Part shown: in pieces, positions 1 through 53,789 of the stretch
Layout of the letters: each line of letters opens with the position of its first letter
Position numbering within the stretch: the first letter of the stretch is position 1
Source of the DNA: Candidatus Omnitrophota bacterium
GTDB lineage: Bacteria; Omnitrophota; Gorgyraeia; Zapsychrales; JBDRMG01
Direction of reading: 5' to 3'
NCBI GenBank assembly: GCA_043812495.1
Contig: JBDRMG010000047.1
Span: 43,771-107,770 of the forward strand
Length of the DNA stretch: 64,000 nucleotides
The notes under the pieces: generated by a model
Told to the model about the DNA's origin: nothing
Databases searched by the model: none
Seen by the model: only the letters and a program-made list of their open reading frames with translations
Position numbers and translations under genes: made by a program

Positions 1-116
1 ATTTTCTACAGAAAGAAGAGCTCATGGCAGAGTTTATTCGCTCTTCTAAGCTTGAGGCACAAGAGCGCGATAGGTTTACGGCCATTATCCAAGAGCGTTA
101 TCGGCGATTGAATTTT

Positions 117-960
117 TTATAAAAAAATATGGATTCCTGCAAGAGCATGAAAGAAATCGCCGAGTCGATTATTTTGATAGATGAACTGCAGAAAAAATAA
201 ATGTCCGCCATGCCTTGCCTTGCAAGGCATGGCGAGACCTCGCCATCCGGCACAACACGGATGGCGGGGATGAACTGCAGAAGAAGTAAATGACGTCACG
301 ACTTATGGAGCCCATTGGGCGACATAAGTCGTAGACGGAATTTACCCCGCACCTTTTTCTTATTCAAGATTGTTTAGCTCGTACGAATTAAAATGATTGA
401 ATGAATAAAAGGTGCGGGGTTTAATTCGCAGACGGCCTTCGGCCTATAATTTATGTCATCCGCCACAAAAAACAATGGCGGAATCCATAAATTATCTGCT
501 CATTAAAAAAAGCGCTTGACAAAATTGTTAATTGGTTCTATATTTAAAGTGAAGTTAAGGACAGCGAAGTCCTCTTAGACCGATGAAGGTTTAAGAGGAT
601 TTTTTAATGAGCGCATGAGCTGCGGAATAAAATGACGCAACTCAAAGCGCGAATTAACCCTTGACATCAAAGATGTCAAGGGTAAGTTCGCACGTATCAT
701 TTGCAGAACACAAAGTGTGATGTAAATGATGTCCGCACTTAGGACACAGACGTCCGACGAGATCAGCGATGATCAAGTCGGACTTTTTAATGACGGCGCA
801 ATTTATGAAACGCCTGCCTTGCCGGCAGGCAGGAAGTGAACATAAATTGCTGCCGGAATTTACCCCGCACCTTTAAATCATTCAAAGATGAATAAAAAAG
901 GTGCGGGGTAAATTCGGACAAATCATTTACATCGTACTTCGTGCTCTGTAAATGATGTCC
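117..960. repeat. Mosaic array of heterogeneous short hairpins joined by A/T-rich TAAAT(G/T)-like linkers. Includes CCCCGCACC...GGTGCGGGG hairpins at 342-420 and 851-912, and GCCCGCCA-type REPs.
   Basis: Many consecutive inverted repeats are visible in the sequence. The linker motif recurs as aatttacc, taaatgat, ttaattcg. The six-frame ORFs here are short and lie inside the repeats. Confidence 0.7.
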
Positions 961-1262
961 TCATTTAGAGCGATGAGGCTCTCTTTATTGACTTTCTCTT
1001 TATTAAAGGAACGGTGGAAGTCAATATTAGGTCTTCTTTCTCGTATAGAGAGAATATTATTGACTGTTCCATTAATAAGGAAAAGACCAATAAAGCCAGC
1101 GATGGTTTTCAGGAGGGCCTTTTTTAATGACCCCGCCGCATTATTGCATTCTGCAAGAATGCAAAAGGCGGGGGAATTAACCTCGAGCCCGAAGGCGAGC
1201 CCGAAGGGCGAGGGGGATTGGTTCTCAAAACAGCCCAAAAAACGATAAAAAAAGGATAGAAA

Positions 1263-2063
1263 ATGAGGCATTTTATTTTGAATTCCATGATGGCAAGTCT
1301 GATTGCTTTCTTAAATTTAAATGGTGCTTACGCCGAAGAATCAAAAACCATCCTTGGTGATTTTCTGAAAGATAAGGGAATCGAGCTTGAGGTTTCGGGA
1401 ACAATGGATCTGTATTCCAAATATATCTGGCGCGGCATGCGCTTGGATGATGATTATGTCATTCAGCCGGGCCTTGCCATCAGCGGATACGGTTTCGAAG
1501 TCAGCGTTTGGTCCAGTTTTGATCTCGACCAGGATGATGCCCTCAATTCCGATGAAGTGGATACAAGCATTACCTATACGCATGATTTTAAAGATCTTGC
1601 TCTTTTCGGGCATAATTTGGACACCATAAGCGTAACCGTCGGACATATTTATTATGATTTTCCCGGCGCCGGTACTTTCAGCAAGGAAACGGTTTTGGGG
1701 CTTGCGTATGATACGCTTCTTTCGCCTTCTGTGACGTGGTATCACGATTACAGCCAGGAAGCCCAAGGCGGCGGTAAAGGGGATTATGTGGTTCTGGATT
1801 TAAGCCACAGCTTTGATGTCATAAAAGAATACGGCATCACGTTTGATTTGGCCACGCACGCGGGATACAACCGTAAGCTTTTTATCAACGGAGAAGGCGG
1901 GGATTGGGGGATTTCCGCCGGATTGACATTGCCCTTGACAAAAAACCTAACACTATCCCCTAACGTCAATTACAGCGTGCCTTTAGGTGATGTCGAAGAT
2001 GAGAATGACGGAAATTACGAGGATGAATTTTATTGGAGTGTTGCAACCGCTTATACCTTTTAA
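1263..2063 (+). CDS. Putative outer-membrane beta-barrel protein (porin-like), encoded immediately upstream of amtB
   Basis: N-terminal signal peptide ending in YAEE. Alternating hydrophobic pattern. C-terminal aromatic residue (…TAYTF), the usual OMP beta-signal. Its stop is 20 bp before the amtB start. Confidence 0.5.
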   Translation: MRHFILNSMMASLIAFLNLNGAYAEESKTILGDFLKDKGIELEVSGTMDLYSKYIWRGMRLDDDYVIQPGLAISGYGFEVSVWSSFDLDQDDALNSDEVDTSITYTHDFKDLALFGHNLDTISVTVGHIYYDFPGAGTFSKETVLGLAYDTLLSPSVTWYHDYSQEAQGGGKGDYVVLDLSHSFDVIKEYGITFDLATHAGYNRKLFINGEGGDWGISAGLTLPLTKNLTLSPNVNYSVPLGDVEDENDGNYEDEFYWSVATAYTF

Positions 2064-2082
2064 TGAGAGAAGGGAGAAAGAA

Positions 2083-3426
2083 ATGTTACGAACATTATTC
2101 AATCGATCAATAAAAATAACGACACTGTTATTTGCTGCACTTTCTTGCTTGCCTATGACAGCGTATGCTGAAGAGATCGCCTTAGCCAGCCAGGTGGGCG
2201 TGGATACGCTTTGGGTTCTCATGGCTGCTTTTTTGGTGTTTTTTATGCAGGCCGGTTTTGGTATGGTGGAGGCGGGTTTTATCCGCGCCAAAAACACATG
2301 CAATATTTTGACCAAAAACTTTCTGGATTTTTGCATGGCTTCACTCGGGTTTTTTGTCTTTGGATATGCCATTATGTTCGGACCGGGTAACGGGTTTATG
2401 GGATTCAAAGGATGGTTTCTTCACGGGGCCGAATCAGGGGCCAGCGTTCCATTATATGCTTTCTGGCTGTTCCAGGCTGTTTTTTGCGGGACGGCCGCAA
2501 CCATCGTCGCCGGCGGTATGGCTGAGCGGATGAAGTTTCAGGCCTACTTGATTTATTCTTTTCTCATTTCGGCTTTTATTTACCCAATCGTGGGTCATTG
2601 GGTATGGGGCGGAGGATGGCTCTCTAAACTGGGTTTCGCGGATTTTGCCGGCTCAACGGTCGTGCATGCTGTCGGCGGTTTTGCGGCTTTAATCGGAACA
2701 GTGATCTTAAAACCGCGAACGGGAAAATTTAATGCCGATGGATCACCGAATGTCATTGCCGGCCATAATATCCCGCTTGCTTCTTTAGGTGTTTTTATTT
2801 TGTGGTTCGGATGGTTTGGTTTTAATCCCGGATCGACTCTAGGGGTGGGAGACGGAAGCCTGATTGCCCGAGTAGCGATCAATACGAATCTGGCCGCCGC
2901 TTCCGGAGGTATTTTTGCCATGATCACGGTCTGGAAAATGTTTGGCAAACCAGACCTTTCCATGGCCATGAACGGGGCTTTAGCTGGTTTGGTAGCGATC
3001 ACAGCGCCATGCGCCTTTGTTGATCCTTCGGCTGCTATATTCATCGGTGCTGTGGCAGGCGTTATCGTTGTCCTGGGCGTTGTTTTCTTGGATAAGCTTC
3101 ACATTGACGATCCCGTGGGTGCTGTGCCTGTGCATGGATTTAACGGTGTTTGGGGGACGCTCTCCGTTGGTTTATTCGGAAAAGAGAGCTTGGGTCTTGC
3201 CTCAAACGGTCTTTTTTTTGGCGGAGGCCTGAAGCAATTGGGTATCCAGGCTCTGGGCGTTGGCTGCGCAGCCCTTTTTATCGTTATCTGTATGGGGGCT
3301 GTCTTTAAGATCCTTGATGCCACCATAGGTTTGCGCGTGTCCAAAGAAGAGGAATATAAAGGCTTAGATATCGGAGAACGCGGCATGGAATCATATTCCG
3401 GATTCCAGGTGTTTACGACTCAATAA
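2083..3426 (+). CDS. amtB: Ammonium transporter (Amt family)
   Basis: The translation has the typical Amt motifs (GFGMVEAGF, multi-TM, signal peptide after MLRTLF). The likely true start is the ATG at 2083 with RBS agggagaaag, not the ORF-track start at 1987. Confidence 0.9.
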   Translation: MLRTLFNRSIKITTLLFAALSCLPMTAYAEEIALASQVGVDTLWVLMAAFLVFFMQAGFGMVEAGFIRAKNTCNILTKNFLDFCMASLGFFVFGYAIMFGPGNGFMGFKGWFLHGAESGASVPLYAFWLFQAVFCGTAATIVAGGMAERMKFQAYLIYSFLISAFIYPIVGHWVWGGGWLSKLGFADFAGSTVVHAVGGFAALIGTVILKPRTGKFNADGSPNVIAGHNIPLASLGVFILWFGWFGFNPGSTLGVGDGSLIARVAINTNLAAASGGIFAMITVWKMFGKPDLSMAMNGALAGLVAITAPCAFVDPSAAIFIGAVAGVIVVLGVVFLDKLHIDDPVGAVPVHGFNGVWGTLSVGLFGKESLGLASNGLFFGGGLKQLGIQALGVGCAALFIVICMGAVFKILDATIGLRVSKEEEYKGLDIGERGMESYSGFQVFTTQ

Positions 3427-3544
3427 GTGAAGCCCCCCTCTGCCCCGCATTTTGCGGGGCAAGAAGCGGGGTGGCTGAATCTAACTCGTGCGGTAACTTA
3501 CGTCACTTTGTTCCGTAAGTTACGCGCTCGTAAGATGGAGGTGC

Positions 3545-3889
3545 ATGATGAAATTAATTATTGCCATGATCCAACCGCATAAACTGCCCGACGTCAAGGA
3601 AGCCCTCTATAAAGCGGAAGTTTTTAAAATGACCGTCACCAATGTGCTCGGGTGCGGGCAACAGAAAGGTTATAGCGAGACATACCGCGGCGTCGCGCAG
3701 GAAATCAACTTGTTGAAAAAAGTCAGACTTGAAATCGCCGTCAACGAGAACTTCGTCAAACCGACCATTGACGCCATCATCAAAGGCGCCAAGACGGGGA
3801 AAATCGGAGACGGAAAAATATTCGTTCTGGATTTGCCCCGCTGCATCCGCATCCGGACAGGGGAAGAGGGATCGGAAGCGATTGGGTGA
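3545..3889 (+). CDS. glnK: Nitrogen regulatory protein P-II (GlnK-type, amtB-linked)
   Basis: 112 aa GlnB/GlnK-family sequence (…[12 protein letters not shown]… T-loop) immediately downstream of amtB. The start may be the second ATG at 3548. Confidence 0.9.
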
Positions 3890-4170
3890 GTCAACAAGCG
3901 GGATCCTCGCAGGCTTAAAGTTGTTTGAGTTTTAATTGAAAATGTGTTAAAACAATAATGCTTTGAACCAGGAGGTCTTAGGATGCCCAAACTTACGGAT
4001 GGAGCGCTAGCGAAAGAACGTAAGTTTGAGGCCGAACTTAGACCCCGCACCTTTTTTCTCATTCAGATAGTTTTGAATCGCGCGACTCAAAAATATTGAA
4101 TAAGAAAAAGGTGCGGGGTTCAATTCGCCCGCCACTGAATCAATGGCGGGCTCATTGAAGGAGGAGCAAA

Positions 4171-6276
4171 ATGAAAGTTGAGAAAAGCGAAAATAGAAAC
4201 GAATCTATTCCTGATTTTTACGGGGAAAATGTCTTTAGCTTAAAAGTCATGCGCAACTATCTTTCCGAAACAGCGTACAAATCTCTAAGCACAACCATTA
4301 AAACCGGCGGAACCCTTGATCCCGACATTGCCGATGAGGTGGCAGATGCGATGAAAACATGGGCTTTATCCAAGGGGGCTACGCATTTTACGCATTGGTT
4401 TCAGCCGCTCACGGGAACGACGGCAGAGAAACACGATTCCTTTATTTCGCCGGATGAAGAAGGCGGCGTGATCCTGAAGTTTTCCGGCAAAGAACTGATT
4501 CAGGGCGAACCTGATGCCTCTAGTTTCCCGTCGGGCGGCCTAAGGCCGACCTTTGAAGCCCGCGGATATACCGGTTGGGATCCGACAAGCCCGGCATTTA
4601 TCAAGGAAGGCCCGAAAAGAGCCACGCTTTGTATTCCGACGTATTTTATCGGATGGAACGGCGAAGCCCTGGATAAAAAGACACCGTTATTGCGTTCCAT
4701 GAAGGCTCTTTCCAAACAGGTGTGCCGTCTGGGTGAACTCTTTGGCGTCAAATCCAAAGGCAAAATAGCCTACGCGACACTGGGCGGCGAGCAGGAATAT
4801 TTCCTGATCGACAGAAAATATTACAATCAGCGCATTGACCTGATTCAGACAGGCAGGACATTGTATGGCAAAGAACCGGCCAAGCATCAGCAGATGGCTG
4901 ATCATTATTTTGGAGCGATCAAAAGCAGAATCATGGGCTTTATGGAAGACTTAGACTATGAAATGTGGAAGTTGGGTGTGCCCACAAAAACACGCCATAA
5001 TGAGGTGGCTCCGGCCCAGTTTGAAGTGGCTCCTATTTTTGAGAGCTTGAACCTCGCTGTTGACCACAACATGATCTGCATGGAAACAATGAAAAAGGTC
5101 GCCGAAAAGCACGGCCTAGTCTGCCTTTTGCACGAAAAACCGTTTGCCGGCATTAACGGCTCGGGTAAGCACAACAACTGGTCCATCGTCGGTCCGGACG
5201 GAAAAAATTGGCTATCACCCGGCGATAATCCGCACGAAGACGCCAAATTTCTTGTGGTGCTTTGCGCGATTATTAAAGCGGTTGACACGTATGCCGAATT
5301 GCTGCGCGTTTCGATTGCCTCAGCCGGAAATGACCACCGCTTAGGTTCCCACGAAGCGCCGCCGGCGATTATTTCCATTTTCTTAGGCGATCAGTTGACG
5401 GATATTATCGAGCAGATTGAAAAAGGCGAAGCCAAAAGCTCTAAACAAGGCGGTGTGCTTGAAATCGGCGTGGATTCGCTGCCGAAACTGCCGCGTGATG
5501 CCACGGACCGCAACAGAACATCTCCTTTTGCCTTTACGGGATCAAAGTTCGAATTCCGCGCCGTTGGCTCCGACATGAGCTTGGCTGGCCCCAATATCAT
5601 TCTCAATATGATTGTGGCCGAATCCTTGGATGGAATTTGCACAGAACTCGAAGCCGCTGTTAAGGCCAAAAAGGATTTTAATGCGTCCGTTTCGAAAATC
5701 CTTAAAGGCATCATTGCAAAACACAAGAGAGTTATTTTTAATGGGGACAACTACACGGAAGAATGGCTCAAAGAGGCGAAGAAAAGAGGCCTTCCTAACC
5801 TCAAAAATACTCTCGAGGCCTTGGAGGTGCTCAAGAAACCCGAGTACATTCGAGTTTTTGAAAAACACTGCGTTCTCTCTAAAAAAGAACTCATGTCTCG
5901 TTATGGAGTCTACAAAGAGGCTTTTGAGATTACGATTGATTATGAAGCCAAGCTGGCCGCGGATATGGCCAAGACCCTGATCATTCCTGTCGTCGTCAGT
6001 TATCAGAATGAACTGGCCAATACCATCAGATCCGTTGAGGGCATCAATAAGACAAGCTTAAAAGAATCTCGCAAGCTTTTGAAGAGCATCTCCAAAGAAG
6101 CAGAGACAGCCTTAAGCTACATCGAGGACCTTGAAGGAGCGATCAAGAAGAAAGAGCCTCTGAAGACCAAAGAAGCGATGAAAGAACTGCGCGAGACCAT
6201 CGACGCGCTCGAAGGCCTGATTCCGGCCGACAAATGGCCATTGCCGTCATATGCCGAAATGCTCTTTATGCTTTAG
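4171..6276 (+). CDS. glnN: Glutamine synthetase type III
   Basis: About 700 aa with a GSIII-like N-terminus (FYGENVF…HFTHWFQPLTG) and a catalytic core. The size and motifs fit GSIII rather than GSI. Confidence 0.85.
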   Translation: MKVEKSENRNESIPDFYGENVFSLKVMRNYLSETAYKSLSTTIKTGGTLDPDIADEVADAMKTWALSKGATHFTHWFQPLTGTTAEKHDSFISPDEEGGVILKFSGKELIQGEPDASSFPSGGLRPTFEARGYTGWDPTSPAFIKEGPKRATLCIPTYFIGWNGEALDKKTPLLRSMKALSKQVCRLGELFGVKSKGKIAYATLGGEQEYFLIDRKYYNQRIDLIQTGRTLYGKEPAKHQQMADHYFGAIKSRIMGFMEDLDYEMWKLGVPTKTRHNEVAPAQFEVAPIFESLNLAVDHNMICMETMKKVAEKHGLVCLLHEKPFAGINGSGKHNNWSIVGPDGKNWLSPGDNPHEDAKFLVVLCAIIKAVDTYAELLRVSIASAGNDHRLGSHEAPPAIISIFLGDQLTDIIEQIEKGEAKSSKQGGVLEIGVDSLPKLPRDATDRNRTSPFAFTGSKFEFRAVGSDMSLAGPNIILNMIVAESLDGICTELEAAVKAKKDFNASVSKILKGIIAKHKRVIFNGDNYTEEWLKEAKKRGLPNLKNTLEALEVLKKPEYIRVFEKHCVLSKKELMSRYGVYKEAFEITIDYEAKLAADMAKTLIIPVVVSYQNELANTIRSVEGINKTSLKESRKLLKSISKEAETALSYIEDLEGAIKKKEPLKTKEAMKELRETIDALEGLIPADKWPLPSYAEMLFML

Positions 6277-6389
6277 AGACAATGATTCTTTTCCTAAAAC
6301 ACATTACAGCATCAAGGCTTACGCATAAATTTTTTTGTTTTTGAATGCACAATAATTAGGCAAAAACCTTATTCATAAAGGAGCTTTCC

Positions 6390-8081
6390 ATGCTCAGAAT
6401 CGGCTTAGCGCAAATCAATGTCACCGTCGGCGATCTTGAGGGTAATCGCAACAAGATTATCGAATATATCAAGCGGGCCAAGCAATTCAATATCAACATC
6501 GTTGTGTTTCCTGAATTGGCCTTAACGGGTTATCCGCCGGAAGATCTTCTCCTGAAGGACCATTTTATCAAAGATAATTTCAAAGCGCTGAACCGCATCA
6601 TCCAGGAGACAGAAAACACGTTGGCCATTATTGGGTTTGTTGACAGAGACAAAGCCGGGCGCCTGTACAATGCCGCAGCCGTCATTTATCACAAAAAACT
6701 CAAAGGCGTATACCGCAAGATGGAACTTCCTAATTATGGCGTTTTTGACGAAAAAAGATATTTTACGCCCGGCACAGAAAATAAAGTTTTTGCTTTTGGA
6801 GATCATAAACTGGGCATAAGCATTTGCGAAGATATTTGGCACCCCCAGGGCCCTTGCCGACAACAGGTCAAGGCCGGAGCTAATTTATTAATCAATTTGT
6901 CCTCGTCTCCGTATCAAGCGGGAAAAGCAAAAATGCGAGGAAAATTTTTATCTCAGCAAGCCAAAAAGAACAAAGCTTCTGTGGCCTATGTGAATCTCAT
7001 CGGAGGGCAAGACGAGCTGGTCTTTGACGGCGCGAGCCTGATCATTGATCCTAAAGGAAAAATCGTCGCATCCGGAAAATCTTTCGAAGAAGATCTCGTG
7101 ACCGCCGATCTCGCGCTCCCGGTTAAATCAAGGGCTTCAGAAAAAGATCAGCTCAAAATGATATTGATCGAGAAAGATCTGAAGATAAAAGGAAAATTAT
7201 TGATCAAAGGCAAGAGAGCCAAACCGCTAAGCCCAACCGAAGAAATCTACAAGGCCCTTGTCCTGGGTACGCGCGATTATGTCCTCAAAAATGGATTTAA
7301 AAAAGTCGTCTTAGGCTTAAGCGGCGGAATTGATTCTTCGCTCGTGGCAACAATTGCCTGCGATGCCTTGGGTGCGCAAAACGTGATCGGCGTAACCATG
7401 CCATCGCGCTTTACGTCGAGTGAAACGCGCTATGACGCCCTGCGCCTGGCGGATAATCTCAGGATACAAGATCGTGAAGTCCCGATCGACTCCATTTACG
7501 AAGCGTATTTGAAAACGCTCAAAGAGGAATTTCTCGGGCTTGACCCCGATACAACCGAAGAGAACATCCAGGCGCGTATCCGTGGCAATATCCTCATGGC
7601 TTTTTCCAACAAATTCGGCTGGCTTGTGTTGACCACAGGCAACAAAAGCGAAGTGGCCGTCGGTTACTGTACGCTTTACGGCGATATGGCCGGCGGATTT
7701 GCCGTCATTAAAGATATTCCCAAAACGCTTGTTTATCGCCTCGCTCGCTACCGCAATAGTCTTGAAAAGAAAGAATTGATTGCGCCCAGTATCCTCAAGC
7801 GTCCTCCTACGGCGGAATTGCGTAAGAATCAAAAAGATCAGGATTCTCTGCCGCCCTATGATGTCTTAGATAAAATCTTAGAGGCTTATGTCGAAAAAGA
7901 CAAAAGCCTGTCCAAGATCAAAGGGGCGAAAACGAACGAAAAACTTATTTGCAAAGTTACGCGTATGGTTGACCGGATGGAATATAAGCGGCGTCAGTCA
8001 CCGCCGGGTGTGAAAATTACGCCCAGGGCATTCGGCAAAGACAGGCGGCTTCCGATCACCAACAGATATAAGGAATATTGA
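6390..8081 (+). CDS. nadE: Glutamine-dependent NAD+ synthetase (CN-hydrolase glutaminase domain plus NAD synthetase domain)
   Basis: N-terminal nitrilase-like domain (VVFPELALTGYPPEDLL) and C-terminal NAD synthase PP-loop (GLSGGIDSS). Confidence 0.9.
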   Translation: MLRIGLAQINVTVGDLEGNRNKIIEYIKRAKQFNINIVVFPELALTGYPPEDLLLKDHFIKDNFKALNRIIQETENTLAIIGFVDRDKAGRLYNAAAVIYHKKLKGVYRKMELPNYGVFDEKRYFTPGTENKVFAFGDHKLGISICEDIWHPQGPCRQQVKAGANLLINLSSSPYQAGKAKMRGKFLSQQAKKNKASVAYVNLIGGQDELVFDGASLIIDPKGKIVASGKSFEEDLVTADLALPVKSRASEKDQLKMILIEKDLKIKGKLLIKGKRAKPLSPTEEIYKALVLGTRDYVLKNGFKKVVLGLSGGIDSSLVATIACDALGAQNVIGVTMPSRFTSSETRYDALRLADNLRIQDREVPIDSIYEAYLKTLKEEFLGLDPDTTEENIQARIRGNILMAFSNKFGWLVLTTGNKSEVAVGYCTLYGDMAGGFAVIKDIPKTLVYRLARYRNSLEKKELIAPSILKRPPTAELRKNQKDQDSLPPYDVLDKILEAYVEKDKSLSKIKGAKTNEKLICKVTRMVDRMEYKRRQSPPGVKITPRAFGKDRRLPITNRYKEY

Positions 8082-15057: not shown

Positions 15058-15125
15058 TTAACGCGAATTTTCGCGAATCTAACGCGAATGATCGCGAATT
15101 TCTTGATGATCTATTCGCGAAAATC
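15058..15125. promoter_or_regulatory. Cluster of five TTCGCGAA / CGCGAA palindromic half-sites in the gltD-downstream intergenic region
   Basis: aacgcgaattttcgcgaatctaacgcgaatgatcgcgaatttc…tattcgcgaaaat read directly from the sequence. Candidate regulator-binding array or repeat. Confidence 0.35.
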
Positions 15126-18126: not shown

Positions 18127-18180
18127 ATTCGGGCAATGGCGTTCGGATCATTTACAGATTGATCTGTAGGGGCAACGAGG

Positions 18181-18225
18181 TCCTCAAGAAAATCCAAAGA
18201 AGGATTTTTTGAGGATTTTTTTATT
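18181..18225 (+). terminator. Rho-independent terminator-like hairpin with T-run
   Basis: tcctcaagaaaatccaaagaaggattttttgagga followed by ttttttt. Confidence 0.55.
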
Positions 18226-18311: not shown

Positions 18312-19157
18312 ATGAAAATTATCCACAAAGAAATCCTCACGGACACTCAAGGCGTTAAAATCATCAAATTTTATATCCAATCTCCTTTTATCGCTAAAAA
18401 AGCCCAACCCGGACAATTTGTCGTGGCCATGGTCCAGGAAGACGGAGAACGCATTCCTCTGACCGTTGTCGATACGCATGGAGATGAGATCACGCTCATT
18501 ATGCAGGAAGCTGGTTTATCGACAAAGCTCATGGGAAAATTGAACGTGGGAGATTCTCTTTACGCACTTGTGGGGCCCTTGGGGCACGCGACGCCCATTA
18601 AAAATTACGGCAAGGTTATTCTTGTGGCCGGTGGTGTGGGGATCGCCGAAATTTATCCCGTGGCCAAAAAACTTAAAGAAACGGGAAATCATGTCGTTGT
18701 GATCTTAGGCGCGAGAACCAAAGATATCTTGTTTTATGAAAATGAGCTAAGACATATCGCGGATGAACTTTATGTCACGACCGATGACGGCTCGTACGGC
18801 CAAAAAGGTTTTACAACAGATGTTCTGAAAGAACTTCTTGGGAAAAGTAAATATGATTTTGTTTATGCCGTCGGACCTTTACCGATGATGGAAAAAGTTT
18901 CGCTGGTATCAAAAGGTTTCGGCGTGAAAACAGCTGTTTCCCTGAATGCCACCATGCTGGATGCGAGCGGCATGTGCGGAGGATGCCGGGTCACAGTGGA
19001 CGGCAAGGTCAAATTTGCCTGCGTGGACGGCCCGGAATTCGACGGCCATTTGGTTGACTGGGATGAAATGAAAAAAAGAAGCAAGATGTATCTTGATCAG
19101 GAAAAACATTCCTGTCATTTACATAATGGGGCTTCACAAAAATCGTTTCGTCCTTGA
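18312..19157 (+). CDS. nfnA: NfnA / sulfide dehydrogenase beta-like FAD/NAD-binding [2Fe-2S] subunit (PyrK-like)
   Basis: Ferredoxin-NADP reductase-like fold with a C-terminal Cys cluster (GGCRVTVDGKVKFACVDGP). Paired with the downstream GltD-like gene. Confidence 0.75.
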   Translation: MKIIHKEILTDTQGVKIIKFYIQSPFIAKKAQPGQFVVAMVQEDGERIPLTVVDTHGDEITLIMQEAGLSTKLMGKLNVGDSLYALVGPLGHATPIKNYGKVILVAGGVGIAEIYPVAKKLKETGNHVVVILGARTKDILFYENELRHIADELYVTTDDGSYGQKGFTTDVLKELLGKSKYDFVYAVGPLPMMEKVSLVSKGFGVKTAVSLNATMLDASGMCGGCRVTVDGKVKFACVDGPEFDGHLVDWDEMKKRSKMYLDQEKHSCHLHNGASQKSFRP

Positions 19158-19235
19158 TTACACAGATTAAGAATCTGATTCCACAGATTGAAACTCATCG
19201 AGAACATCTGTGTAATCTTATGAAAATCCGTGTAA
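19158..19235. repeat. Short element built of GATTACACAGAT / ATCTGTGTAATC inverted repeats (copy 1)
   Basis: gattacacagat, gattccacagat and atctgtgtaatc lie within 80 bp. The same motif set recurs at 56886-56950. Confidence 0.6.
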
Positions 19236-19280
19236 TCGATAGCACAGAACGAATTTTATGAAAGGCTATTTATATAAGAT

Positions 19281-22539: not shown

Positions 22540-22868
22540 GCCCGCAACACAAAAATCTTACCCTTGAAAAATGGAACCGGTTGTCTTTTATCGAGCAGAT
22601 GGCCAATATCGGTAGCGAGGTCGAGCGCGCCCTCAACTGGCGGGCCAGGCATCACGCGGCCTATTGTCAATTGGCTTTTGAGCGCGCCCTTGAGCTGTTG
22701 GATTTAACCCTAGAGAGCGTGAAAGGTTTTTCCCGCCTTAAAGAACTTACCCGCCTGCGGGAAGCGATGGCGGATTATTTTTTCGGGACAAACCGATTTC
22801 AGTATAACGAAGCGTCTCTAAAACAATACTTTCTGAACTTTGCCTACGCCGCCCGCCGGAATCGTTGA
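22536..22868 (+). CDS. Hypothetical protein (second of pair; GTG start)
   Basis: 110 aa. Overlaps the upstream stop by 4 bp. Confidence 0.4.
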   Translation: MSPQHKNLTLEKWNRLSFIEQMANIGSEVERALNWRARHHAAYCQLAFERALELLDLTLESVKGFSRLKELTRLREAMADYFFGTNRFQYNEASLKQYFLNFAYAARRNR

Positions 22869-22899
22869 TCAAAGAATAAAGACGCATTACCGGCGGCCT

Positions 22900-23300
22900 C
22901 CAGCCCATCTCCCTCCGGATTTTCTTCCTTGACATAGGGGGGATTTTTGTTAAATTGAGACCGTTGACCCTTACAACGGTCTCATCCTGAACGAAGTCGA
23001 AGGATTTGCGCACATGAGTTACATCTCCCGTTTCGCTTGGTCCGTAACTCATGGGGTTATCCAGGGGTGAAAGTCGTGGAAAAAACACAAAATTGAAAGC
23101 AAATTCCGGCAGCCCGCCATTGATTCATCGGCGGGCTGCCGATTCTATTTAAGCTCAGAAAAGATCGCAGACGTTGCCGGTCAATGATTATAGATTATAG
23201 TGTTTTCTTCTTCGCCCGCCACTAAATCGTTGGCGGGCTCGAAGTAAATTCGCCTCGTCACTTAGGTCATTTCATTCCATGAGTGACGGGCTCATTTAAG
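22900..23300. repeat. Array of heterogeneous hairpins, including a CTTCG-flanked GCCCGCCA REP at 23205-23250
   Basis: gagaccgttg…caacggtctc, catgagttac…gtaactcatg, cgcccgccactaaatcgttggcgggctcgaag and others. Confidence 0.65.
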
Positions 23301-23505
23301 CGGGTTTCGGACAAGGGCAATAATGTTTCGTTTGGATTAAGAGAAAATCGTACAGTAGACGAGTAAAATTTAAAGTTGATGTTTTAGAGGTCTCCTATAT
23401 TCGCTGCAAATAGTTTTCATATAATATAATTTATATAGTATAATAATGTCCATTAAGTTAATTACATCTGATATTTATAAGGGTACAATTTGTTAAAATA
23501 AGGAT

Positions 23506-25344: not shown

Positions 25345-25379
25345 ACGTTGTCCGTAATCATTTAGCATAAAAAAATAAT

Positions 25380-25500
25380 TTAGACCGTTTCTAAATTTAT
25401 TTTTTAGTGGTAACCCCACGCTCCTCTTGTTCATCGGAGCTTTGGGGTAAATTCGCACCTATGGTTTACGTTCCGTAAACCATGTGCTCATTTATGAATA
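25380..25500. repeat. Hairpin repeats abutting the 5' end of the YhcG-N/SNase gene
   Basis: gtggtaacccc / ggggtaa and aattcgcacctatggtttacgttccgtaaaccatgtgctcat hairpins. Confidence 0.6.
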
Positions 25501-25633
25501 AACCTCTAACAAATCCAACACCTATCCCACCCTCGTCAAGAACATCCAATCCGAACTCTCAAACCTTGAATTCTTCATCAAGCGCCAGACGGCGGAATCC
25601 TACTGGAAAGTCGGGAAATTCATTCATGAGCAT

Positions 25634-26479: not shown

Positions 26480-26489
26480 TTCTGCTTCG

Positions 26490-26935
26490 CTGCAATGTTC
26501 TCATGTTGCAGCTTCGCAGAATGGATCACTTAGGAATTGTGAAAAGACAGACCACGGGTTTACCCGTGGTGGGTTGCCAAAGGTTTTTCGTGAGCGAAGC
26601 TCACGTAATATACATGGAACCACGGGTTTGCCCGTGGGGATCCATTTGCAGAATATATTGGATTGTTTTCTTCTTCGCCCGCCACTAAATCGTTGGCGGG
26701 CTCGAAGTAAATTAGGTCAGTGACTTATGTTCCTCTAAATGACGTCGCAACTTATGGAGCGAAGCGAACATAAGTTGCTTGACGGAATTTACTCCGTACC
26801 TTTGAGATATGTTGAATTATTTGCTAAAGGTGCGGAACTAATTCGTACAGTCACTTATGTTCATTCACTTTGTTCACTCCATAAGTGACGCACCCATGAG
26901 CCGTCCATAAGTCACGACCTCATTTAAATCAGGAG
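26490..26935. repeat. Hairpin-repeat array (REP plus heterogeneous hairpins)
   Basis: Includes tgcttcgctgcaatgttctcatgttgcagcttcgca, ccacgggtttacccgtgg twice, a CTTCG-flanked REP and cacttatg…cataagtg units. Confidence 0.65.
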
Positions 26936-27088: not shown

Positions 27089-27322
27089 ATGATTAAGCTC
27101 AGCAAACGATCGACCATCTATTTTGACCCGCAAGTGCATAAAATTCTTAAATATAAAGCTATCGAAAGCTCACGTTCCGTCTCAGAGATTGTCCATGATG
27201 CGATCTTGCACGAATTAGCCGAAGACAAAGAGGATTTGGAAGCCTTTTCCAAACGCGCCCATGAGCCGACCGTATCTTTTGAAGCCTTGTTAAAAGAGCT
27301 GAAATTAGATGGCAAAATATAA
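27089..27322 (+). CDS. Ribbon-helix-helix (CopG/ParD-like) antitoxin
   Basis: 77 aa RHH-like N-terminus (TIYFDPQVHKILKYKA…SVSEIVHDAI). Overlaps the downstream toxin gene. Confidence 0.7.
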   Translation: MIKLSKRSTIYFDPQVHKILKYKAIESSRSVSEIVHDAILHELAEDKEDLEAFSKRAHEPTVSFEALLKELKLDGKI

Positions 27323-27569
27323 GATTGAGATTAAAAAAAGCGCTGTTAAAGAAGTCAAACAGCTTCCCGCCAAGGATATTAAGAAAATCCTGAAGAAAAT
27401 TATGGACCTCGGAGATGATCCCCACCCGCCGGACAGCAAGAAATTATCCGGTCATGATCGATATCGCCTTCGCTACCGGCATTATCGAATTCTTTATGAA
27501 ATTGTCGAAGATATTCTCATTATTTATGTTGTTAGAATCGGACATCGAAAAGATATTTACAGGAAGTAA
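27309..27569 (+). CDS. RelE/ParE-family toxin
   Basis: 86 aa with the RelE/ParE C-terminal signature (YRLRY…RILYEIVED…IYVVRIGHRKDIY). Overlaps the antitoxin by 14 bp. Confidence 0.75.
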   Translation: MAKYKIEIKKSAVKEVKQLPAKDIKKILKKIMDLGDDPHPPDSKKLSGHDRYRLRYRHYRILYEIVEDILIIYVVRIGHRKDIYRK

Positions 27570-27802
27570 AGAGATTGTAAACGTTGTCAGCAAATGATGA
27601 TAAAGGTTTCTTCTTTGTTCCGCCGCTGAAGCGTTGGCAAACCATCTTCGTTTTCGGATGGAAGGTGGTTCAAAATTTGTTTGCAGGATTTTGGCGAACA
27701 AAAAGTTTCGGATAACGCCTTTAATTTTTAATTTTGTTAATTCCCGCCACTTTCGAGTCATTCCTCAATTTTTCCCCTTGGCATAAAATTCCTAAAATCT
27801 TT

Positions 27803-27831: not shown

Positions 27832-27894
27832 ATTTCTATTCAATCAACAATGGCAAAGATGTCTAAATGGTTGAAATATAAAATTGTATTTGCT

Positions 27895-27990
27895 CTATCC
27901 CCGCCGCATTCTTGCAGAATGCAAGAGGCGGGGTCCATTCGCACTGATCAGTTACGTTCCCTACGGTCACGTAACTGATGTGCTCATGGA
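27895..27990. repeat. Hairpin repeats: CCCCGCCGCATTCTTGCAGAATGCAAGAGGCGGGG (also at 1128-1165) plus a cagttacg…cgtaactg hairpin
   Basis: Read directly from the sequence. There is a near-identical copy near 1130. Confidence 0.6.
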
Positions 27991-28044
27991 AAAGAACGAT
28001 TCCCGAATGATTTCATGTTTTGCTTAACCAGAAAAGAAAGAGAT

Positions 28045-29984: not shown

Positions 29985-30535
29985 CATATTCTGCTTCGCC
30001 CAAATGTCCTTCGACTTTCGCTCCATTAGAGCGAGAGTCGAACCATTTTCACGTTTGGGCTTCGCAGGAATTATCCGCCTTACATTAATCGGGCTTGACC
30101 ATGCGGGCGGAATCTCGCCGAAGCATGCTTACGCATTCTCCTACAGGCAAGCCCACAGCCCTCTTGCCGAATTCAAGATTCGCCTCTGGCGAGCTGCGAA
30201 GGCGGATAAAATCTGGCCTCGCTGACTTGCCATTTGGAAAAAATCGGTTATACTTTAAATGCGGATAAATCCGCAAAACTATGCCACGGAAAAATGTAAA
30301 ACTTTCCTCCGTGGCATTTTTATTCTACTTCGCCGAATACCCTGCTGCTTGTTGCGGGGATAAAGGCGAAGTAGAACCCTACGAAGCTCCCAAACGAGTT
30401 CTGCGAAGCTTTAGCGAAGCAGAACGAAAGTTTTGGAGCGTAGTAGGGTTGGGTATTCGGTCCTCCTTCGCCAAGGCTTCGGAGGGATTCTGCGAAGCTT
30501 TAGCGAAGCAGAACTTCAAAGAATGAAACATCCAA
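29985..30535. repeat. Dense palindromic repeat region of the TTCG-hairpin superfamily, including a duplicated ttctgcgaagctttagcgaagcagaac unit
   Basis: ttctgcTTCgcccaaa…tttgggcTTCgcaggaa. The 28 nt unit occurs at 30396 and 30488. Fragments of the 115 nt element are also present. Confidence 0.65.
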
Positions 30536-33032: not shown

Positions 33033-33082
33033 GAAAATCAATTGACTAAAAATTTCTTTGAGAGCTTTGAGGATATTTTGAG

Positions 33083-33110
33083 TTGACAAAAATATTTTCA
33101 ATGGTATAGT
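33083..33110 (+). promoter_or_regulatory. Consensus sigma70-like promoter (TTGACA, 16 bp, TATAGT) directly upstream of repeat element copy 2
   Basis: ttgaca at 33083-33088 and tatagt at 33105-33110. Confidence 0.5.
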
Positions 33111-33122
33111 GATAATAATTTT

Positions 33123-33236
33123 ATTCTACTTCGCATAAGCAATGGAAAAATAGTATATGCTTCGTAGAATATTCTCTGCCGAATAATTCTCCGAAGCCTA
33201 TACTATCTTTCTCTATTGGTAAGGCGAAGGAGAATA
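33123..33236 (+). repeat. About 115 nt two-hairpin element (copy 2 of 3)
   Basis: About 90% identical to 18011-18126. Followed at 33299-33329 by an aaggacggcc…ggccgtcctt hairpin. Confidence 0.7.
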
Positions 33237-33298
33237 GGGCAAAGAAGCTCTAAAAAAGCGTTACGCGAACATTGATGAGGAAAGCAATTGATTATTTT

Positions 33299-33335
33299 AA
33301 GGACGGCCTTTTTAATAAGGGCCGTCCTTTCTCTT
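33299..33335. terminator. Terminator-like GC hairpin downstream of element copy 2 (orientation ambiguous)
   Basis: aaggacggcctttttaataagggccgtcctt followed by tctcttc. Confidence 0.4.
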
Positions 33336-33528
33336 CAATGAGACCATGATTTATGGAGCAAAGCGCCCGCCAATTTTTTAAATTTTTAGCGAGGTCTCGC
33401 CAATTCGATAAAATCGAATTGACGGAACATAAGTCATAAGGTCGAATTGACCCAGCCCGCCATTGATTCAGTGGCGGGCTGGGATAAAAAAAATACAAAT
33501 ATAATATTTCATCTAATAGGACAATGAT

Positions 33529-35046
33529 ATGAAAAAAATCGGTTTTGATAATGAAAAATATTTGAAAGAGCAGGCGCAAGCCATTTTGGAGAGGGTCAAG
33601 CAGTTTGACAATAAACTCTATCTGGAGTTCGGCGGTAAGCTTTTGTTTGATTATCATGCGGCTCGTGTTTTGCCGGGATTTGACCCCAATGTCAAGATGC
33701 GGTTGTTGAAGCAGCTCAAAAATGATGCGGATATTATTTTATGTATTTATGCGGGGGATATCGAACGAAAGAAAGTCCGTGCCGATTTTGGAATTACCTA
33801 TGATGCGGATGCCTTGAAATTGATCGATGATTTAAGAGACTGGGGCATTGATGTCTGCGCGGTTGTGATTACGCGCTTTGAGAATCAACCCGCCGCGACC
33901 ATTTTCAAAAATAAATTACAACGCCAGGGCACCAAGGTCTATACGCATCCGTTTACAAAAGGATATCCGACGGATGTCGATCTGATTGTCAGCGAGCAGG
34001 GTTACGGCGCCAACGAATACATCAAAACAAAACACGGCTTGGTCATTGTGACAGGCCCCGGGCCGGGAAGCGGAAAACTCGCGACTTGCCTGTCCCAGAT
34101 TTACCATGAATATCAAAAAGGCGTCAAAGCCGGTTATGCAAAATTCGAAACATTTCCCATCTGGAACTTGCCTTTAAAACATCCGGTGAATGTCGCTTAT
34201 GAATGCGCCACGGCCGATATTAAAGATTTCAACATGATCGATTCGTTCCACTTGGAAGCTTATCATCAAACAACGGTCAACTATAACCGGGACGTCGAAG
34301 TCTTTCCGGTCTTAAAAAGAATTCTAACTAAAATCATGGGCGAGGATGCGGTTTATAAATCTCCGACGGATATGGGGGTTAATCGGGCCGGTTTTGGCAT
34401 CATTGATGATGAGGCTATTCGCGAAGCATCCAAACAGGAAGCGATCAGGCGATATTTTAAATACGGCTGCGAATATTCCATGGGTTTGGTGGATAAGGAA
34501 ACCGTTGAACGCGCAGAATTATTGATGAAGGAAATGGGCGTTGCTATCGAAAACCGAACAGTTGTAAAGCCTGCGCGAGAGGCCGCCGAACAAGCTCGAG
34601 AAAAAGGAAAAGGAAACGAAGGCATTTTCTGCGGAGCCGCCATAGAGTTGCGTGACGGAAAGATTATCACGGGGAAGAATTCGCCTCTGATGCACGCGGC
34701 CTCCAGTCTCATCCTCAATGCCCTCAAGGACCTGGCCGAAATTCCGGACAAAATCCATCTATTGTCGGAAAATATTATCGGGTCCATATCCAACCTTAAG
34801 AAAGATGTGCTCAAGGCCAAAACATTGAGTTTAGACTTAGACGAAGCCTTGATCAGCCTCAGCATCAGCGCGGCCACCAATTCCACCTCTCAGTTAGCGA
34901 TAGAAAAATTAAAGGAATTGCAGGGATGCGAGGTTCACATTACGCATGTTCCGACGCCGGGTGATGAAGCAGGCTTAAGGCGACTCGGCGTGAATCTGAC
35001 CTGTGATACCAATTTTACGTCCAAAAGTTTTTTTGAAATCTCCTAA
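33529..35046 (+). CDS. DUF1846 / UPF0371-family protein
   Basis: 505 aa. The N-terminus [15 protein letters not shown]… and size are typical of UPF0371 proteins. Confidence 0.6.
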
Positions 35047-35269
35047 TCGACAACTGTAATGAAATATTATAATTGTATTTGCTTAATCCCCAGCCCGCCA
35101 CTGAATCAATAGCGGGCGGTGTCAATTCGGCCTTATGACTTATGTCGTCCGCCACAGAAACAATGGCGGACTCCATAAATCATGGCCTCATCGATAAGCG
35201 AAAGAGGAAGATATGCCAAGACGCAATGATATTCACAAAGTGCTTATAATCGGATCGGGACCCATTATT
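35011..35269 (+). repeat. Direct repeat copy 1 (about 258 bp): DUF1846 3' end, intergenic REPs and the first 19 codons of carB
   Basis: Near-identical to 37494-37751. It carries one extra T near its left end and synonymous differences in the carB codons. Confidence 0.85.
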
Positions 35270-37493: not shown

Positions 37494-37751
37494 AATTTTA
37501 CGTCCAAAAGTTTTTTGAAATCTCCTAATCGACAACTGTAATGAAATATTATAATTGTATTTGCTTAATCCCCAGCCCGCCACTGAATCAATAGCGGGCG
37601 GTGTCAATTCGGCTTTATGACTTATGTCGTCCGCCACAGAAACAATGGCGGACTCCATAAATCATGGCCTCATCGATAAGCGAAAGAGGAAGATATGCCA
37701 AGACGCAATGATATTCACAAAGTTCTCATTATCGGATCAGGCCCCATTATT
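37494..37751 (+). repeat. Direct repeat copy 2 (about 258 bp), providing the intact carB1 start
   Basis: See copy 1. Confidence 0.85.
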
Positions 37752-45400: not shown

Positions 45401-45741
45401 AATTCGAAATCATCTCGACGAAAGGGACATCTAAGGTTCTTAAGTCCAATGACGTCAAGGTGAGCGTTGTGGATAAATTCGGCGAAGGCAAGAACGATCT
45501 GTTGACTTATATCAAGAAAGGTGAGATAAATTTAGTGATCAATACCCCTTCGGGCCAAAAAAGTCAATCGGATATGCGCGCTATTCGCGCCGCCGCTATC
45601 TTACACGGCATCCCCTGCATCACGACCTTGCAAGGGGCCTGGGCGGCGGTTAACGGTATTGAGGCCAGCTTGCATAAAGATTTTACAATCCAATCCTTGC
45701 AGGAATATTATCGTCAAGGGAGCTTATCATGTGCGGAATAG
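42412..45741 (+). CDS. carB: Carbamoyl-phosphate synthase large subunit, paralog 2
   Basis: 1109 aa, full length, closely related to paralog 1 ([30 protein letters not shown]). Confidence 0.9.
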
Positions 45742-48904: not shown

Positions 48905-49125
48905 AATATTTGCGCGGTTCTGCTTCGTCCGCCATTGATGCATTGGCGGACTTCGCAGCAACATTTTGAAATAAAGAATTAATTTGGAAGCGTTAGCGGC
49001 TTCGAAGCTTCCAAATGATTCTGCTTCGTTAAATGCTTACGTATTTAACTTCGCAGGAATCAGTCCTTCGAAGCTCTAATGTCAAAACATTAGAGCGAAG
49101 AAGACTGAAAATTTTGAAGCGAAGA
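48905..49125. repeat. Hairpin array upstream of tRNA-Leu (CTTCG-flanked REP plus gattctgcTTCg…cTTCgcaggaatc-type hairpins)
   Basis: ttctgcttcg-tccgccattgatgcattggcgga-cttcgcagcaa, then gattctgcttcgttaaatgc…atttaacttcgcaggaatc, then ccttcgaagctctaatgt…acattagagcgaagaag. Confidence 0.65.
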
Positions 49126-49127
49126 AG

Positions 49128-53735: not shown

Positions 53736-53789
53736 AATTTCAGGAGCCTTATTTATTCTCCTTCGCCTTACTAATGGAACATAATGGTA

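Follow-up and report, generated by a model that had tools for sequence, protein, structure and literature searches.

The DNA studied here, called the window throughout, is a 64-kb stretch of a Candidatus Omnitrophota genome (contig JBDRMG010000047.1). Its genes are housekeeping ones, largely of nitrogen assimilation (amt, glnB, GSIII, GOGAT, GDH, carAB, purF, pyrG), and its intergenic regions are crowded with short inverted repeats. One such region, at 117-960, had been described in an initial annotation as an array of unrelated hairpins joined by A/T-rich linkers, in the manner of Neisseria intergenic mosaic elements (NIMEs) or bacterial interspersed mosaic elements (BIMEs), with the linker as a possible landing site for hairpins moved by a Y1/HUH transposase. 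The structural analogy proved good and the enzyme guess probably wrong. With a probability of roughly 0.55, we read the arrays as small non-autonomous elements that form hairpins and are nested in one another, members of a family spread through the Omnitrophota, among them derivatives of a cassette for a GIY-YIG nuclease. The units that frame many of these nests are palindromes here termed R1.

A GAF-ANTAR regulator gene lies upstream of a porin-amt-glnB operon in the window, as it does in two relatives (L001 9620-9850, L040 8449-9950; L-numbers denote loci or contigs of other genomes and metagenomes used for comparison). The TorF-type porin gene starts at 1263, and glnB and the GSIII gene have their ATG at 3545 and 4171. 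The Amt protein is 75-86% identical to those of Omnitrophota metagenome-assembled genomes, and the porin is 100% identical to the NCBI protein ABIJ41_06385 and 67% identical to its next relative.

A curated gene map assigns 17% of the window, or 10.9 kb, to intergenic DNA. This portion holds 69 short-loop hairpins (stem of at least 8 matches with at most one mismatch, loop of 3-12) against 13.7 ± 4.5 in dinucleotide shuffles, which served as controls, and the density is 6.3 per kb in intergenic as compared with 1.06 per kb in coding DNA. Folded as single-stranded DNA (ssDNA), 201-960 reaches -207 kcal/mol, versus -91 ± 4.9 for shuffles (z = -23.6), and the folding of 100-1262 is an almost unbroken chain of helices. 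The hairpin arrays are a real, non-random feature, although the limits first given for this one need shifting: 117-200 is the 3' end of a gene and the array occupies 201-1262. Four other regions singled out by the initial annotation (22900-23300, 26490-26935, 29985-30535 and 48905-49125) are equally hairpin-dense, and at least eight more are alike (3427-3544, 3890-4170, 25345-25500, 27880-28000, 33033-33528, 35047-35210, 37530-37690 and 53736-53915). A direct-repeat search of the window revealed no constant direct repeat with unique spacers, in agreement with the view that this is not a CRISPR, and the recurrence of several hairpin families likewise agrees with its not being a single family of repetitive extragenic palindromes (REPs). 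Palindromic units in alternating orientation, conserved junctions and clustering in intergenic DNA give the arrays the proposed NIME/BIME-like architecture. The stems are not unrelated, as had been thought: most fall into recurrent families (R1, YCCGCCA, the CCCCGCACC arms and TTCTGC-TTC), one of which is conserved across the phylum.

R1 units and the triples they frame

R1 is a palindromic unit of about 65 nt with non-palindromic flanks, GGGKTWAATTC-G(stem-loop)C-TCATTWAA, and usually occurs as an inverted doublet. Its anatomy is TAAAT-TC-(G...stem...loop...stem...C)-TC-ATTTA, which reads TAAAT-GA-(...)-GA-ATTTA on the opposite strand. A listing of intergenic ATTCG occurrences shows a G-rich hairpin end, then T(N2)ATTCG, a hairpin and CTCAT(T/A)AA, an arrangement also present in other Omnitrophota genomes. 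The linker words reported earlier (aatttac/taaattc and taaatga/tcattta) are the R1 flanks in two orientations; the linkers are thus recurrent, as claimed, but they are conserved and mutually complementary parts of the unit and not spacers. Set against A/T-rich background, the bare 7-mer TWAATTC does not stand out (14 vs 10.6), whereas TCATTWA does (18 vs 7.1, 0/200 shuffles), as do the extended words GGKTNAATTCG (6 vs 0.10) and CTCATTWA (8 vs 1.1; both 0/200 shuffles). Whole-window counts of linker words with one mismatch were not significant.

Alignment of 13 simple units from 7 genomes gives a 14-bp stem in which 95.6% of cells are paired. Both sides have changed in 10 of the 14 pairs, a level that 0 of 500 shuffles reached and no slid register came close to. 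A covariance model of R1 matches the window 21 times (0.33 per kb); amt loci of 14 other Omnitrophota genomes, 1.18 Mb in all, give 31 matches, and 248 kb of further contigs give 74. A search of the window against Rfam 15 (gathering threshold; E <= 5) returned only two tRNAs and chance-level matches, and no family for R1. R1 is a phylum-wide palindromic unit absent from Rfam. Within the window genome its stems differ between copies, the flanks being the most conserved part, and loops can be flipped from one copy to another (CACAAAGTG vs CACTTTGTG).

Inverted R1(-)/R1(+) doublets lie at 280-513, 597-748, 780-974 and 26729-26933 in the window, and others in L091, L099, L101-L105, L109 and L112. 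Together with a hairpin between them they form a triple of the pattern TWA/ATGA-R1(-)-GAATTTA-(central CCCC...GGGG hairpin)-TAAATTC-R1(+)-TCAT/TWA. Three triples fall within 117-960 (E1, 287-506; E2, 604-748; E3, 787-967), a fourth at 26736-26927 and a fifth before the GSIII gene. They occupy the space from a stop codon or terminator to the ribosome-binding site that follows, with R1(-) abutting the terminator T-run or stop codon and R1(+) ending directly at the Shine-Dalgarno sequence (SD) of the next gene. The CCCCGCACC hairpin has four copies in the window, at 345-419, 863-908, 4043-4118 and, as a variant, 26792-26837. Other arm families (CCCCACACCAACTTT, CCCTTGACA and more) fill the same slot between R1 doublets; the family seen in E2, which differs from CCCCGCACC, also lies between an R1 doublet in L101. 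Scanning metagenome contigs for GAATTTACCCCGCACCTTT gave 34 loci, most with the same triple between stop codon and SD and the same junction words, before unrelated genes such as ilvC, rpsT, rplX and tig. A nitrogen-specific riboswitch or leader was dropped as a general explanation on account of these genes. Hammerhead-like, integron attC and helitron-like readings of the linker, made by eye, were also discarded, since the core bases are absent (no GTTRRRY) and the units are symmetric.

Covariation of this strength would also be expected if the units were cis-acting RNA structures under selection in 5' leaders and between cistrons, whether to stabilise mRNA, to direct its processing or to insulate translation, and perhaps in connection with nitrogen control, with the conserved linkers as single-stranded recognition or cleavage sites; the elements would then be host regulatory RNA and not mobile DNA. 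The stems show no preference for wobble pairs: among 704 stem cells of the clean R1 set, G:T mismatches number 15 and A:C mismatches 17 (49 and 42 over all window stems), which fits a constraint acting on DNA. Position speaks for RNA. R1(+) ends CTCATTWAA(A)GGAGG at 5-10 nt upstream of the start codons of amt, glnB, the TorF porin gene, GSIII and carB, a placement seen in the window, L011, L012, L025, L028, L030, L051, L053 and L074; each operon cistron can carry its own copy (L053), and a -10-like TATAAT...TTGTATTTGCT box precedes three window copies. In addition, AAAUU in the R1 5' flank resembles AU-rich endonuclease sites. On the other hand, the orientations are nearly equal in the window (11 plus, 8 minus), the same triples precede the unrelated genes named above, no Rfam family matches, and the corresponding operon of L001 and L040 has none of these units. 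The central hairpin, moreover, appears able to carry a nuclease gene, and a whole composite can be missing from an orthologous leader, as described below. We therefore regard a primary role as RNA as unlikely.

The GIY-YIG cassette, nested hairpins and polymorphism

In L094, L097 and L103/L111, arms of the CCCCGCACCTTTT type (CCCCGCACC) enclose an open reading frame (ORF) of 86-90 aa. Cassette ORFs, all in related contigs, encode 85-101 aa and are single-domain GIY-YIG proteins (PF01541, E 1e-17 to 4e-18). A search by protein, which did not rely on the DNA pattern, returned more than 100 homologues, several labelled Candidatus Omnitrophota or Omnitrophica by their sources, and homologues found by protein alone share the inverted arms (L115, L116-119, L120/121, L122 and L123/124). 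Altogether, CCCCGCACC-type arms are present in 8 of 8 Omnitrophota-type GIY-YIG contexts; a homologue from the Candidate Phyla Radiation (P0179) is without them. The cassettes are wedged between operon genes: fumarase and RNase PH, mlaF and mlaD, two aconitase-family subunits, cdd and nrdR. The subterminal TATTCAA/TTGAATA of the E1 central hairpin is common to the ORF-bearing copies in L094, L097, L115 and L116, and elements with these words and the same arms form a size series of 46-83, 130, 183 and 289-374 nt. Judged from these sequences, the central CCCCGCACCTTTT-family arms are most readily taken as the terminal inverted repeats of a cassette of about 290 nt encoding a predicted GIY-YIG nuclease of 85-101 aa. 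Because they share the arms of the ORF-bearing copies and fall within the size series, the four CCCCGCACC-type central hairpins of the window are taken to be ORF-less deletion derivatives.

The cassette at L123 1479-1775 lies exactly between the aconitase-family subunit genes, one arm meeting the stop codon of the first gene and the other the ATG of the second. The host sequences on either side, GAATTGTAAT and ATGAAATTC, are similar to the GAATTTA/TAAATTC junction, a likeness that hints at a target preference.

A GIY-YIG protein is the sole one found both embedded in and flanked by the repeats, and neither Y1_Tnp nor any other transposase is present among the approximately 35 window proteins scanned. 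With no Y1/HUH gene among those proteins, no conserved GTAG/CGTC tag and no dRS3 repeat, the suggestion of a Y1/HUH transposase as mover is not supported. Its fullest form, in which the hairpins are classical REP/BIME or REPIN elements moved as ssDNA by a RAYT (Y1/HUH, IS200/IS605-type) encoded elsewhere in the genome, we consider highly improbable, even though such a gene could sit outside the 64-kb window. The inverted doublets and the clusters with conserved junctions are as in REPINs and REP dimers, in which the doublet is able to form a larger hairpin (PMC3116915, PMC3733652). REP and REPIN palindromes also carry an unpaired GTAG or CGTC tag at one end (PMC3733652); while some R1(-) copies do start with CGTC (280-348, 26729-26795), the four bases beside the R1 flank vary over 52 aligned units (GCAC, GGAC, GCGC, GGCC, GACC, CGTC).

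Smaller hairpins are nested within the larger ones. YCCGCCA-N9-TGGCGGR has 12-13 copies in the window, and GYCCGCCA-N9-TGGCGGRC, with (T)TC...(T)TC on its two sides (GAA...GAA in the reverse orientation), occurs in at least six host contexts, among them an R1 loop (35147-35171) and hairpin loops at 48918-48960 and 53859-53899. The two R1 copies before the carB starts (35118-35201, 37600-37683) similarly hold a nested GTCCGCCA hairpin flanked TC..TC. The TTCTGC-TTC...TTC-GCAGAA family comprises six units with a common outer stem (TTCTGC/GCAGAA), the TTC...TTC bracket and five different inner hairpins. Neither this family nor the window's YCCGCCA-N9 hairpin was found in any of 130 other loci. 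Counted over all perfect stems, TC/TC flanking dinucleotides number 9 vs about 3.3 expected, a noisy statistic. The TTC brackets may be target duplications from insertion into a GC-TTC-GC triloop, of which 26589-26605 is an empty example, or a required internal loop. GCGAAGC/GCTTCGC occurs at hairpin tips there and at about 15 other sites, with 22 occurrences in the window on both strands; GCGAAGC and GCTTCGC form exceptionally stable DNA mini-hairpins.

The initial annotation proposed comparing strains for the presence or absence of single hairpins, and two close relatives provide such cases. L051 and L053 are 89-98% identical. A 20-nt insertion, TAAAT plus CCCGCCAAGGCGGGA, occupies the TAAAT linker of the glnB leader in L051 only, with perfect flanks and a TAAAT duplication, and the CCCGCCAAGGCGGGA hairpin is also at the corresponding linker of the L051 porin leader and absent from that of L053. 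Conversely, a composite of about 105 nt stands before the amt SD in L053 and not in L051, the host SD being intact in both. The 20-nt hairpin and the composite have been gained or lost between the two, and in at least this one case the linker did act as the landing site that had been suggested. Further duplication candidates are less clear, as TAA/TAA and TTA/TTA, the TWA words on both sides of E1 and E3, are also part of the conserved flank, and TTC/TC is ambiguous.

Discrete indels with sharp borders and short duplications are difficult to reconcile with hairpins that are not mobile and arise in place by template switch or replication slippage, alongside ordinary terminators, the shared words reflecting mutational bias in A/T-rich spacers. 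Local events do occur: L074 has 100-nt copies in tandem that are distinguished by a small hairpin of similar kind, and a 24-nt duplication brackets two hairpins at 180-292. The flipped loops and the arm symmetry kept without wobble bias would suit such an origin as well. The same units and junction words nevertheless recur at unlinked loci in many genomes, the ORF-bearing to ORF-less series has identical arms, and few hairpins have a T-run. Formation in place is accordingly the least probable of the explanations weighed here.

We favour a reading at the level of DNA because the stems have no wobble preference, both orientations are common, units are dispensable at orthologous sites and one component is a gene cassette; the elements would be tolerated and perhaps secondarily used in leaders. 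In this scheme, they would pile up in the narrow permissive zone from stop codon or terminator to the next ribosome-binding site. When the DNA is single-stranded, the units would fold, and a small nuclease could recognise the folded unit on one strand and nick beside it, the TC/TC versus GA/GA flanks giving direction. Through repair, copying or re-ligation, segments bounded by hairpins might next reach other exposed loops and the A/T-rich palindromic junctions, and as every insertion would make new loops and junctions, arrays would grow by nesting. The action of the nuclease on hairpins, the ssDNA substrate and the mode of copying are modelled here on neisserial Ssn/NTS and on RAYT/REPIN. Such self-nesting would offer a simple mechanism for intergenic expansion in compact genomes. 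A more ambitious proposal, possible but in our estimation doubtful, is an undescribed class of hairpin mobile DNA driven by the nuclease of about 90 aa, in which the 290-nt cassette is autonomous and it and its ORF-less derivatives home into R1-doublet junctions and hairpin loops. If true, the arrays could nest within themselves and stay compatible with operon expression, since their ends recreate stop-proximal and SD-proximal sequence, and this would be a third enzyme-repeat partnership beside RAYT/REPIN and IS200/IS605, linking homing-endonuclease genes with the Ssn/NTS repeats.

Several observations weigh against the favoured reading. A tblastn search found no GIY-YIG gene in the window or in 80 amt loci. 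R1 lies on both sides in only 5 of 8 GIY-YIG contexts, so that its link with the nuclease is circumstantial. The protein is at most a candidate for the Ssn clade (cd10448), and the solved structures nearest to it are UPF0213 BH0048 (E 3e-7) and SLX1. The SRM consensus published for the Ssn system (PMC11893778), HGTCWYN(0-2)YYVSBRHN(0-5)WNVSBRGN(0-2)RNCYNB, is absent from the window (mean of 0.1 matches in shuffles) and from L094, L097, L103, L115, L116 and L120, and the neisserial dRS3 repeat, ATTCCC-N8-GGGAAT, has 0 window matches with up to one mismatch. For the TTC/TC brackets, a required internal loop, with sheared GA/GA on the opposite strand, is an alternative to target duplication. Finally, the regular placement of R1(+) directly 5' of SDs in many genomes could mean a selected expression function; no other observation argues as strongly for such a role.

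Feature map, host regulation and neighbouring loci

The features of the arrays are collected in Table 1. E3's central hairpin, with 46 nt between arm ends, is likewise a putative ORF-less derivative of the GIY-YIG cassette. In the triple before the GSIII gene, the R1(+) stem is replaced by a GCCCGCCA...TGGCGGGC hairpin (4127-4151), flanked by TTC and TCA and followed by CTCATTGAAGGAGG. The R1 covariance model has no match in the array at 29989-30513.

Table 1. Features of the hairpin arrays in the window (bit scores and E values from the R1 covariance model)
Feature	Position	Strand	Details
3' end of ANTAR-type regulator gene	129-200	+	last 23 codons (MDSCKSMKEIAESIILIDELQKK*); 116-198 aligns 81% to L040 9605-9688
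Two unrelated near-perfect hairpins between 24-nt direct repeats	180-292	+	hairpins 206-234, 238-269
R1 minus, E1 left arm	280-348	-	TAAATGA-CGTCACGACTTATGG...CATAAGTCGTAGACG-GAATTTA; 54.2 bits, E 1.4e-8
E1 central hairpin	338-427	.	arms CCCCGCACC (345-353), GGTGCGGGG (411-419); flanks GAATTTA, TTTAATTC; putative ORF-less cassette derivative
R1 plus, E1 right arm	417-513	+	ends CTCATTAAA; 33.5 bits; stem CAGA/TCTG encloses nested hairpins 434-444 (GGCCTTCGGCC) and 446-495, YCCGCCA hairpin 459-482 inside the latter
Conserved leader of porin-amt operon	498-612	+	enclosed by arms 498-517/593-612
Promoter-like site in leader	516-521, 539-544		TTGACA 516-521, TATATT 539-544
Attenuator 1	559-605		hexaloop hairpin GGAC-AGCGAA-GTCC 559-572; terminator hairpin 567-602; T-run 600-605
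R1 minus, E2	597-661	-	abuts attenuator 1 T-run (TTTTTTAATGAG); 65.5 bits, E 5e-11
E2 central hairpin	649-691	.	GAATTAA-CCCTTGACATC-aaa-GATGTCAAGGG-TAAGTTC; 20 nt, 90%
R1 plus, E2	679-748	+	degenerate 3' flank; 26.8 bits
Attenuator 2	742-788	+	hexaloop hairpin GGAC-ACAGAC-GTCC 742-755; terminator hairpin 752-783; T-run 784-788
R1 minus, E3	780-866	-	abuts attenuator 2 T-run; nested GC hairpin in loop; 58.3 bits
E3 central hairpin	851-920	.	GGAATTTA-CCCCGCACC (863-871)...GGTGCGGGG (900-908)-TAAATTCGG; 24 nt, 92%
R1 plus, E3	905-974	+	ends CCTCATTTAG; 71.1 bits, E 3e-12
Rest of array up to porin gene	978-1262	.	long imperfect inverted repeat 978-1015/1063-1100
R1-like unit	1117-1184		TTAATGA-CCCCGCC...GGCGGGG-GAATTAA; 26.6 bits
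Tandem GAGCCCGAAGG x2	1185-1208		
R1 before glnB	3477-3541	+	directly upstream of SD and ATG; 59.3 bits
Triple before GSIII gene	3974-4165	+	weak R1(-) 3974-4045; CCCCGCACC hairpin 4043-4118; R1(+) 4116-4165
Array	23107-23305	+	YCCGCCA hairpin 23107-23141; CTTC-TTC-(GCCCGCC...GGCGGGC)-TC-GAAG 23207-23244; R1(+) 23241-23305
Isolated R1	25444-25501	+	after CCCC...GGGG hairpin
Array	26480-26933	+	TTCTGC-TTC-(hairpin)-TTC-GCAGAA 26480-26521; GCGAAGC mini-hairpin 26589-26605; YCCGCCA unit 26670-26707
Fourth triple	26736-26927		R1(-) 26729-26795; arm variant CTCCGTACC...GGTGCGGAA 26792-26837; R1(+) 26834-26933
Further R1 copy	27930-27997	+	
Further R1 copy	33328-33454	-	
Further R1 copy	35118-35201	+	
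Further R1 copy	37600-37683	+	
Second-class array	29989-30513	+	TTCTGC-TTC-(nested hairpins)-TTC-GCAGGA 29989-30069; TTCTACTTCGCC...GGCGAAGTAGAA 30323-30376; CCCTAC-GAA-GC...GC-GTA-GTAGGG 30377-30448, enclosing reversed TTCTGC unit 30399-30424; second reversed unit 30488-30513
Array just upstream of tRNA-Leu	48918-49105	+	TTCTGC-TTC-(GTCCGCCA...TGGCGGAC)-TTC-GCAGCA 48918-48960; next hairpin 48983-49015; TTCTGC-TTC-(TTAAATGC...)-TTC-GCAGGA 49019-49058; GTCCTTC-GAA-GC...GC-GAA-GAAGAC 49063-49105
tRNA-Leu	49127-49208		
tRNA-Glu	56954-57031		

A minority of the hairpins in 117-960 appear, from their sequence, to belong to host regulation, namely a promoter-like site and two ANTAR-type attenuators. 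Attenuators under ANTAR control are reportedly made of two hairpins with A..G.. hexaloops overlapping a terminator. The likeness in the window lies in GGAC-AnnGAn-GTCC hexaloops beside terminators, downstream of an ANTAR-type gene; AGCGAA and ACAGAC both begin with A and have G as the fourth base, the fit of the second being less clear. In relatives, a gene with GAF-GAF-ANTAR domains (Pfam) has its 3' end at L040 9605-9688, and tandem attenuators (GGSC-AnnGAn-GTCC hexaloop plus terminator) follow the GAF-ANTAR gene, three in L001/L040 and two clear ones in the window. The homologous promoter and attenuators at L040 9700-9790 and L001 9630-9720 have no extra hairpins around them; since they stand alone there, inserted elements would account for roughly 700 nt of growth in the window leader. 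The difference from ANTAR systems is one of extent, as the attenuators account for about 100 nt of the 1060-nt array and the remaining hairpins vary in their loops and lack T-runs. A further attenuator of this kind at 18160-18225 (GGGCAACGAGGTCC, a terminator and a T-run), upstream of a gene at 18312-19157, suggests a small ANTAR regulon. The regulator gene itself has an apparent frameshift in T6/A7 runs at 113-127, and a direct repeat of its 3' end (180-203 and 269-292, 22/24 identical) is far longer than the other flanking duplications.

Mechanical ORFs of 113-121 aa traverse hairpin arrays on the minus strand at 927-1271, 22747-23088 and 33292-33657. They are probably artefacts, as palindromic arrays can keep frames open, and could be mis-called as genes; R1 would lead gene callers into such spurious ORFs and probably also breaks short-read assemblies.

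Around carB, which has two paralogues (37695-40940 and 42412-45741), a 246-nt duplication of 97% identity (35024-35269 and 37506-37751) comprises a TATAAT box, an R1-containing leader and the first approximately 19 carB codons, the copy at 35024-35269 being a truncated gene start. Five closely spaced palindromic words of the TCGCGAAT type at 15058-15125, upstream of a PPDK-like gene (15273), could form an operator array. The motif GATTACACAGAT occurs in both orientations at two unlinked intergenic sites, 19158-19250 and 56885-56948, the latter just before tRNA-Glu. Two toxin-antitoxin-like pairs are present: a small antitoxin and a RelE/ParE-like ORF behind a TTGACA...TATACT promoter (27090-27570), and a nucleotidyltransferase with a HepT-like ORF (49693-50376). 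Outside the window, L029, from a single-cell Omnitrophota genome, has a giant ORF of 2570 aa with many tandem repeats of about 35 aa upstream of its amt locus (14-7726). Small divergent sigma-70-like ORFs lie beside the amt operon in L029 (8349-8861) and L074 (5374-5976), with R1 units flanking and weak Sigma70_r2/r4 and GerE matches.

Relation to known systems

No description of such elements in Omnitrophota was found in the literature. Miniature inverted-repeat transposable elements (MITEs) that fold as hairpins, such as the neisserial Correia elements, are 50-200 nt long and have terminal inverted repeats. The Omnitrophota hairpins resemble them as putative deletion derivatives of a longer ORF-bearing element, in their intergenic positions near promoters, terminators and ribosome-binding sites, and in their A/T-rich flanks, with TWA on both sides of E1 and E3. 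They differ in that the ORF-bearing partner encodes a nuclease of about 90 aa and not a recognisable transposase, and in that elements are nested in each other's loops. Nesting of small hairpins is shared with the small dispersed repeats (SDR) of heterocystous cyanobacteria, which are said to be very small hairpin elements with compensatory changes, nested within their own copies and within other repeats, and for which an RNA intermediate has reportedly been proposed; they are not known to have an associated protein. Sequences and hosts are different, and the wobble statistics of the Omnitrophota units argue for DNA.

With REPs, BIMEs and REPINs the elements have in common imperfect palindromes in many extragenic copies, inverted doublets and clusters with conserved junctions, positions between same-direction and convergent genes, and a dedicated enzyme gene flanked by repeats. 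There is no GTAG/CGTC tag and no Y1/HUH gene was seen, the associated protein being GIY-YIG. Stems vary far more within a genome than is usual for REP copies, and the flanks are the most conserved part.

By analogy, the closest published system appears to be neisserial Ssn/NTS, and not one based on a Y1/HUH transposase. SsnA of Neisseria is a single-domain GIY-YIG protein of 94 aa that cuts only ssDNA, next to hairpin repeats; the NTS/dRS3 repeats that it targets, which border NIMEs, flank ssnA and occur in hundreds of copies, and the authors compare NTS-ssnA-NTS both with an insertion sequence and with REP/BIME (Chenal et al. 2025, PMC11893778). The Omnitrophota protein is likewise a single GIY-YIG domain, of 85-101 aa, its gene is bracketed by inverted hairpin-forming repeats with many intergenic copies clustered around genes, and the repeats have non-palindromic flanks giving direction. 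In contrast to Ssn/NTS, the arms here border immediately on the ORF and ORF-less derivatives exist, the repeats are three-hairpin modules with nesting, no CGTC tag is conserved, and the window itself has no nuclease gene; the protein, known here from sequence, is closest to UPF0213 and SLX1 among solved structures. If the analogy holds, the partnership of a tiny GIY-YIG ssDNA nuclease with hairpin repeats would extend to an uncultivated phylum, providing candidate pairs of enzyme and site for sequence-specific cutting of ssDNA, and the ORF-bearing to ORF-less series would bear on whether repeats of this kind move or have moved in the past.

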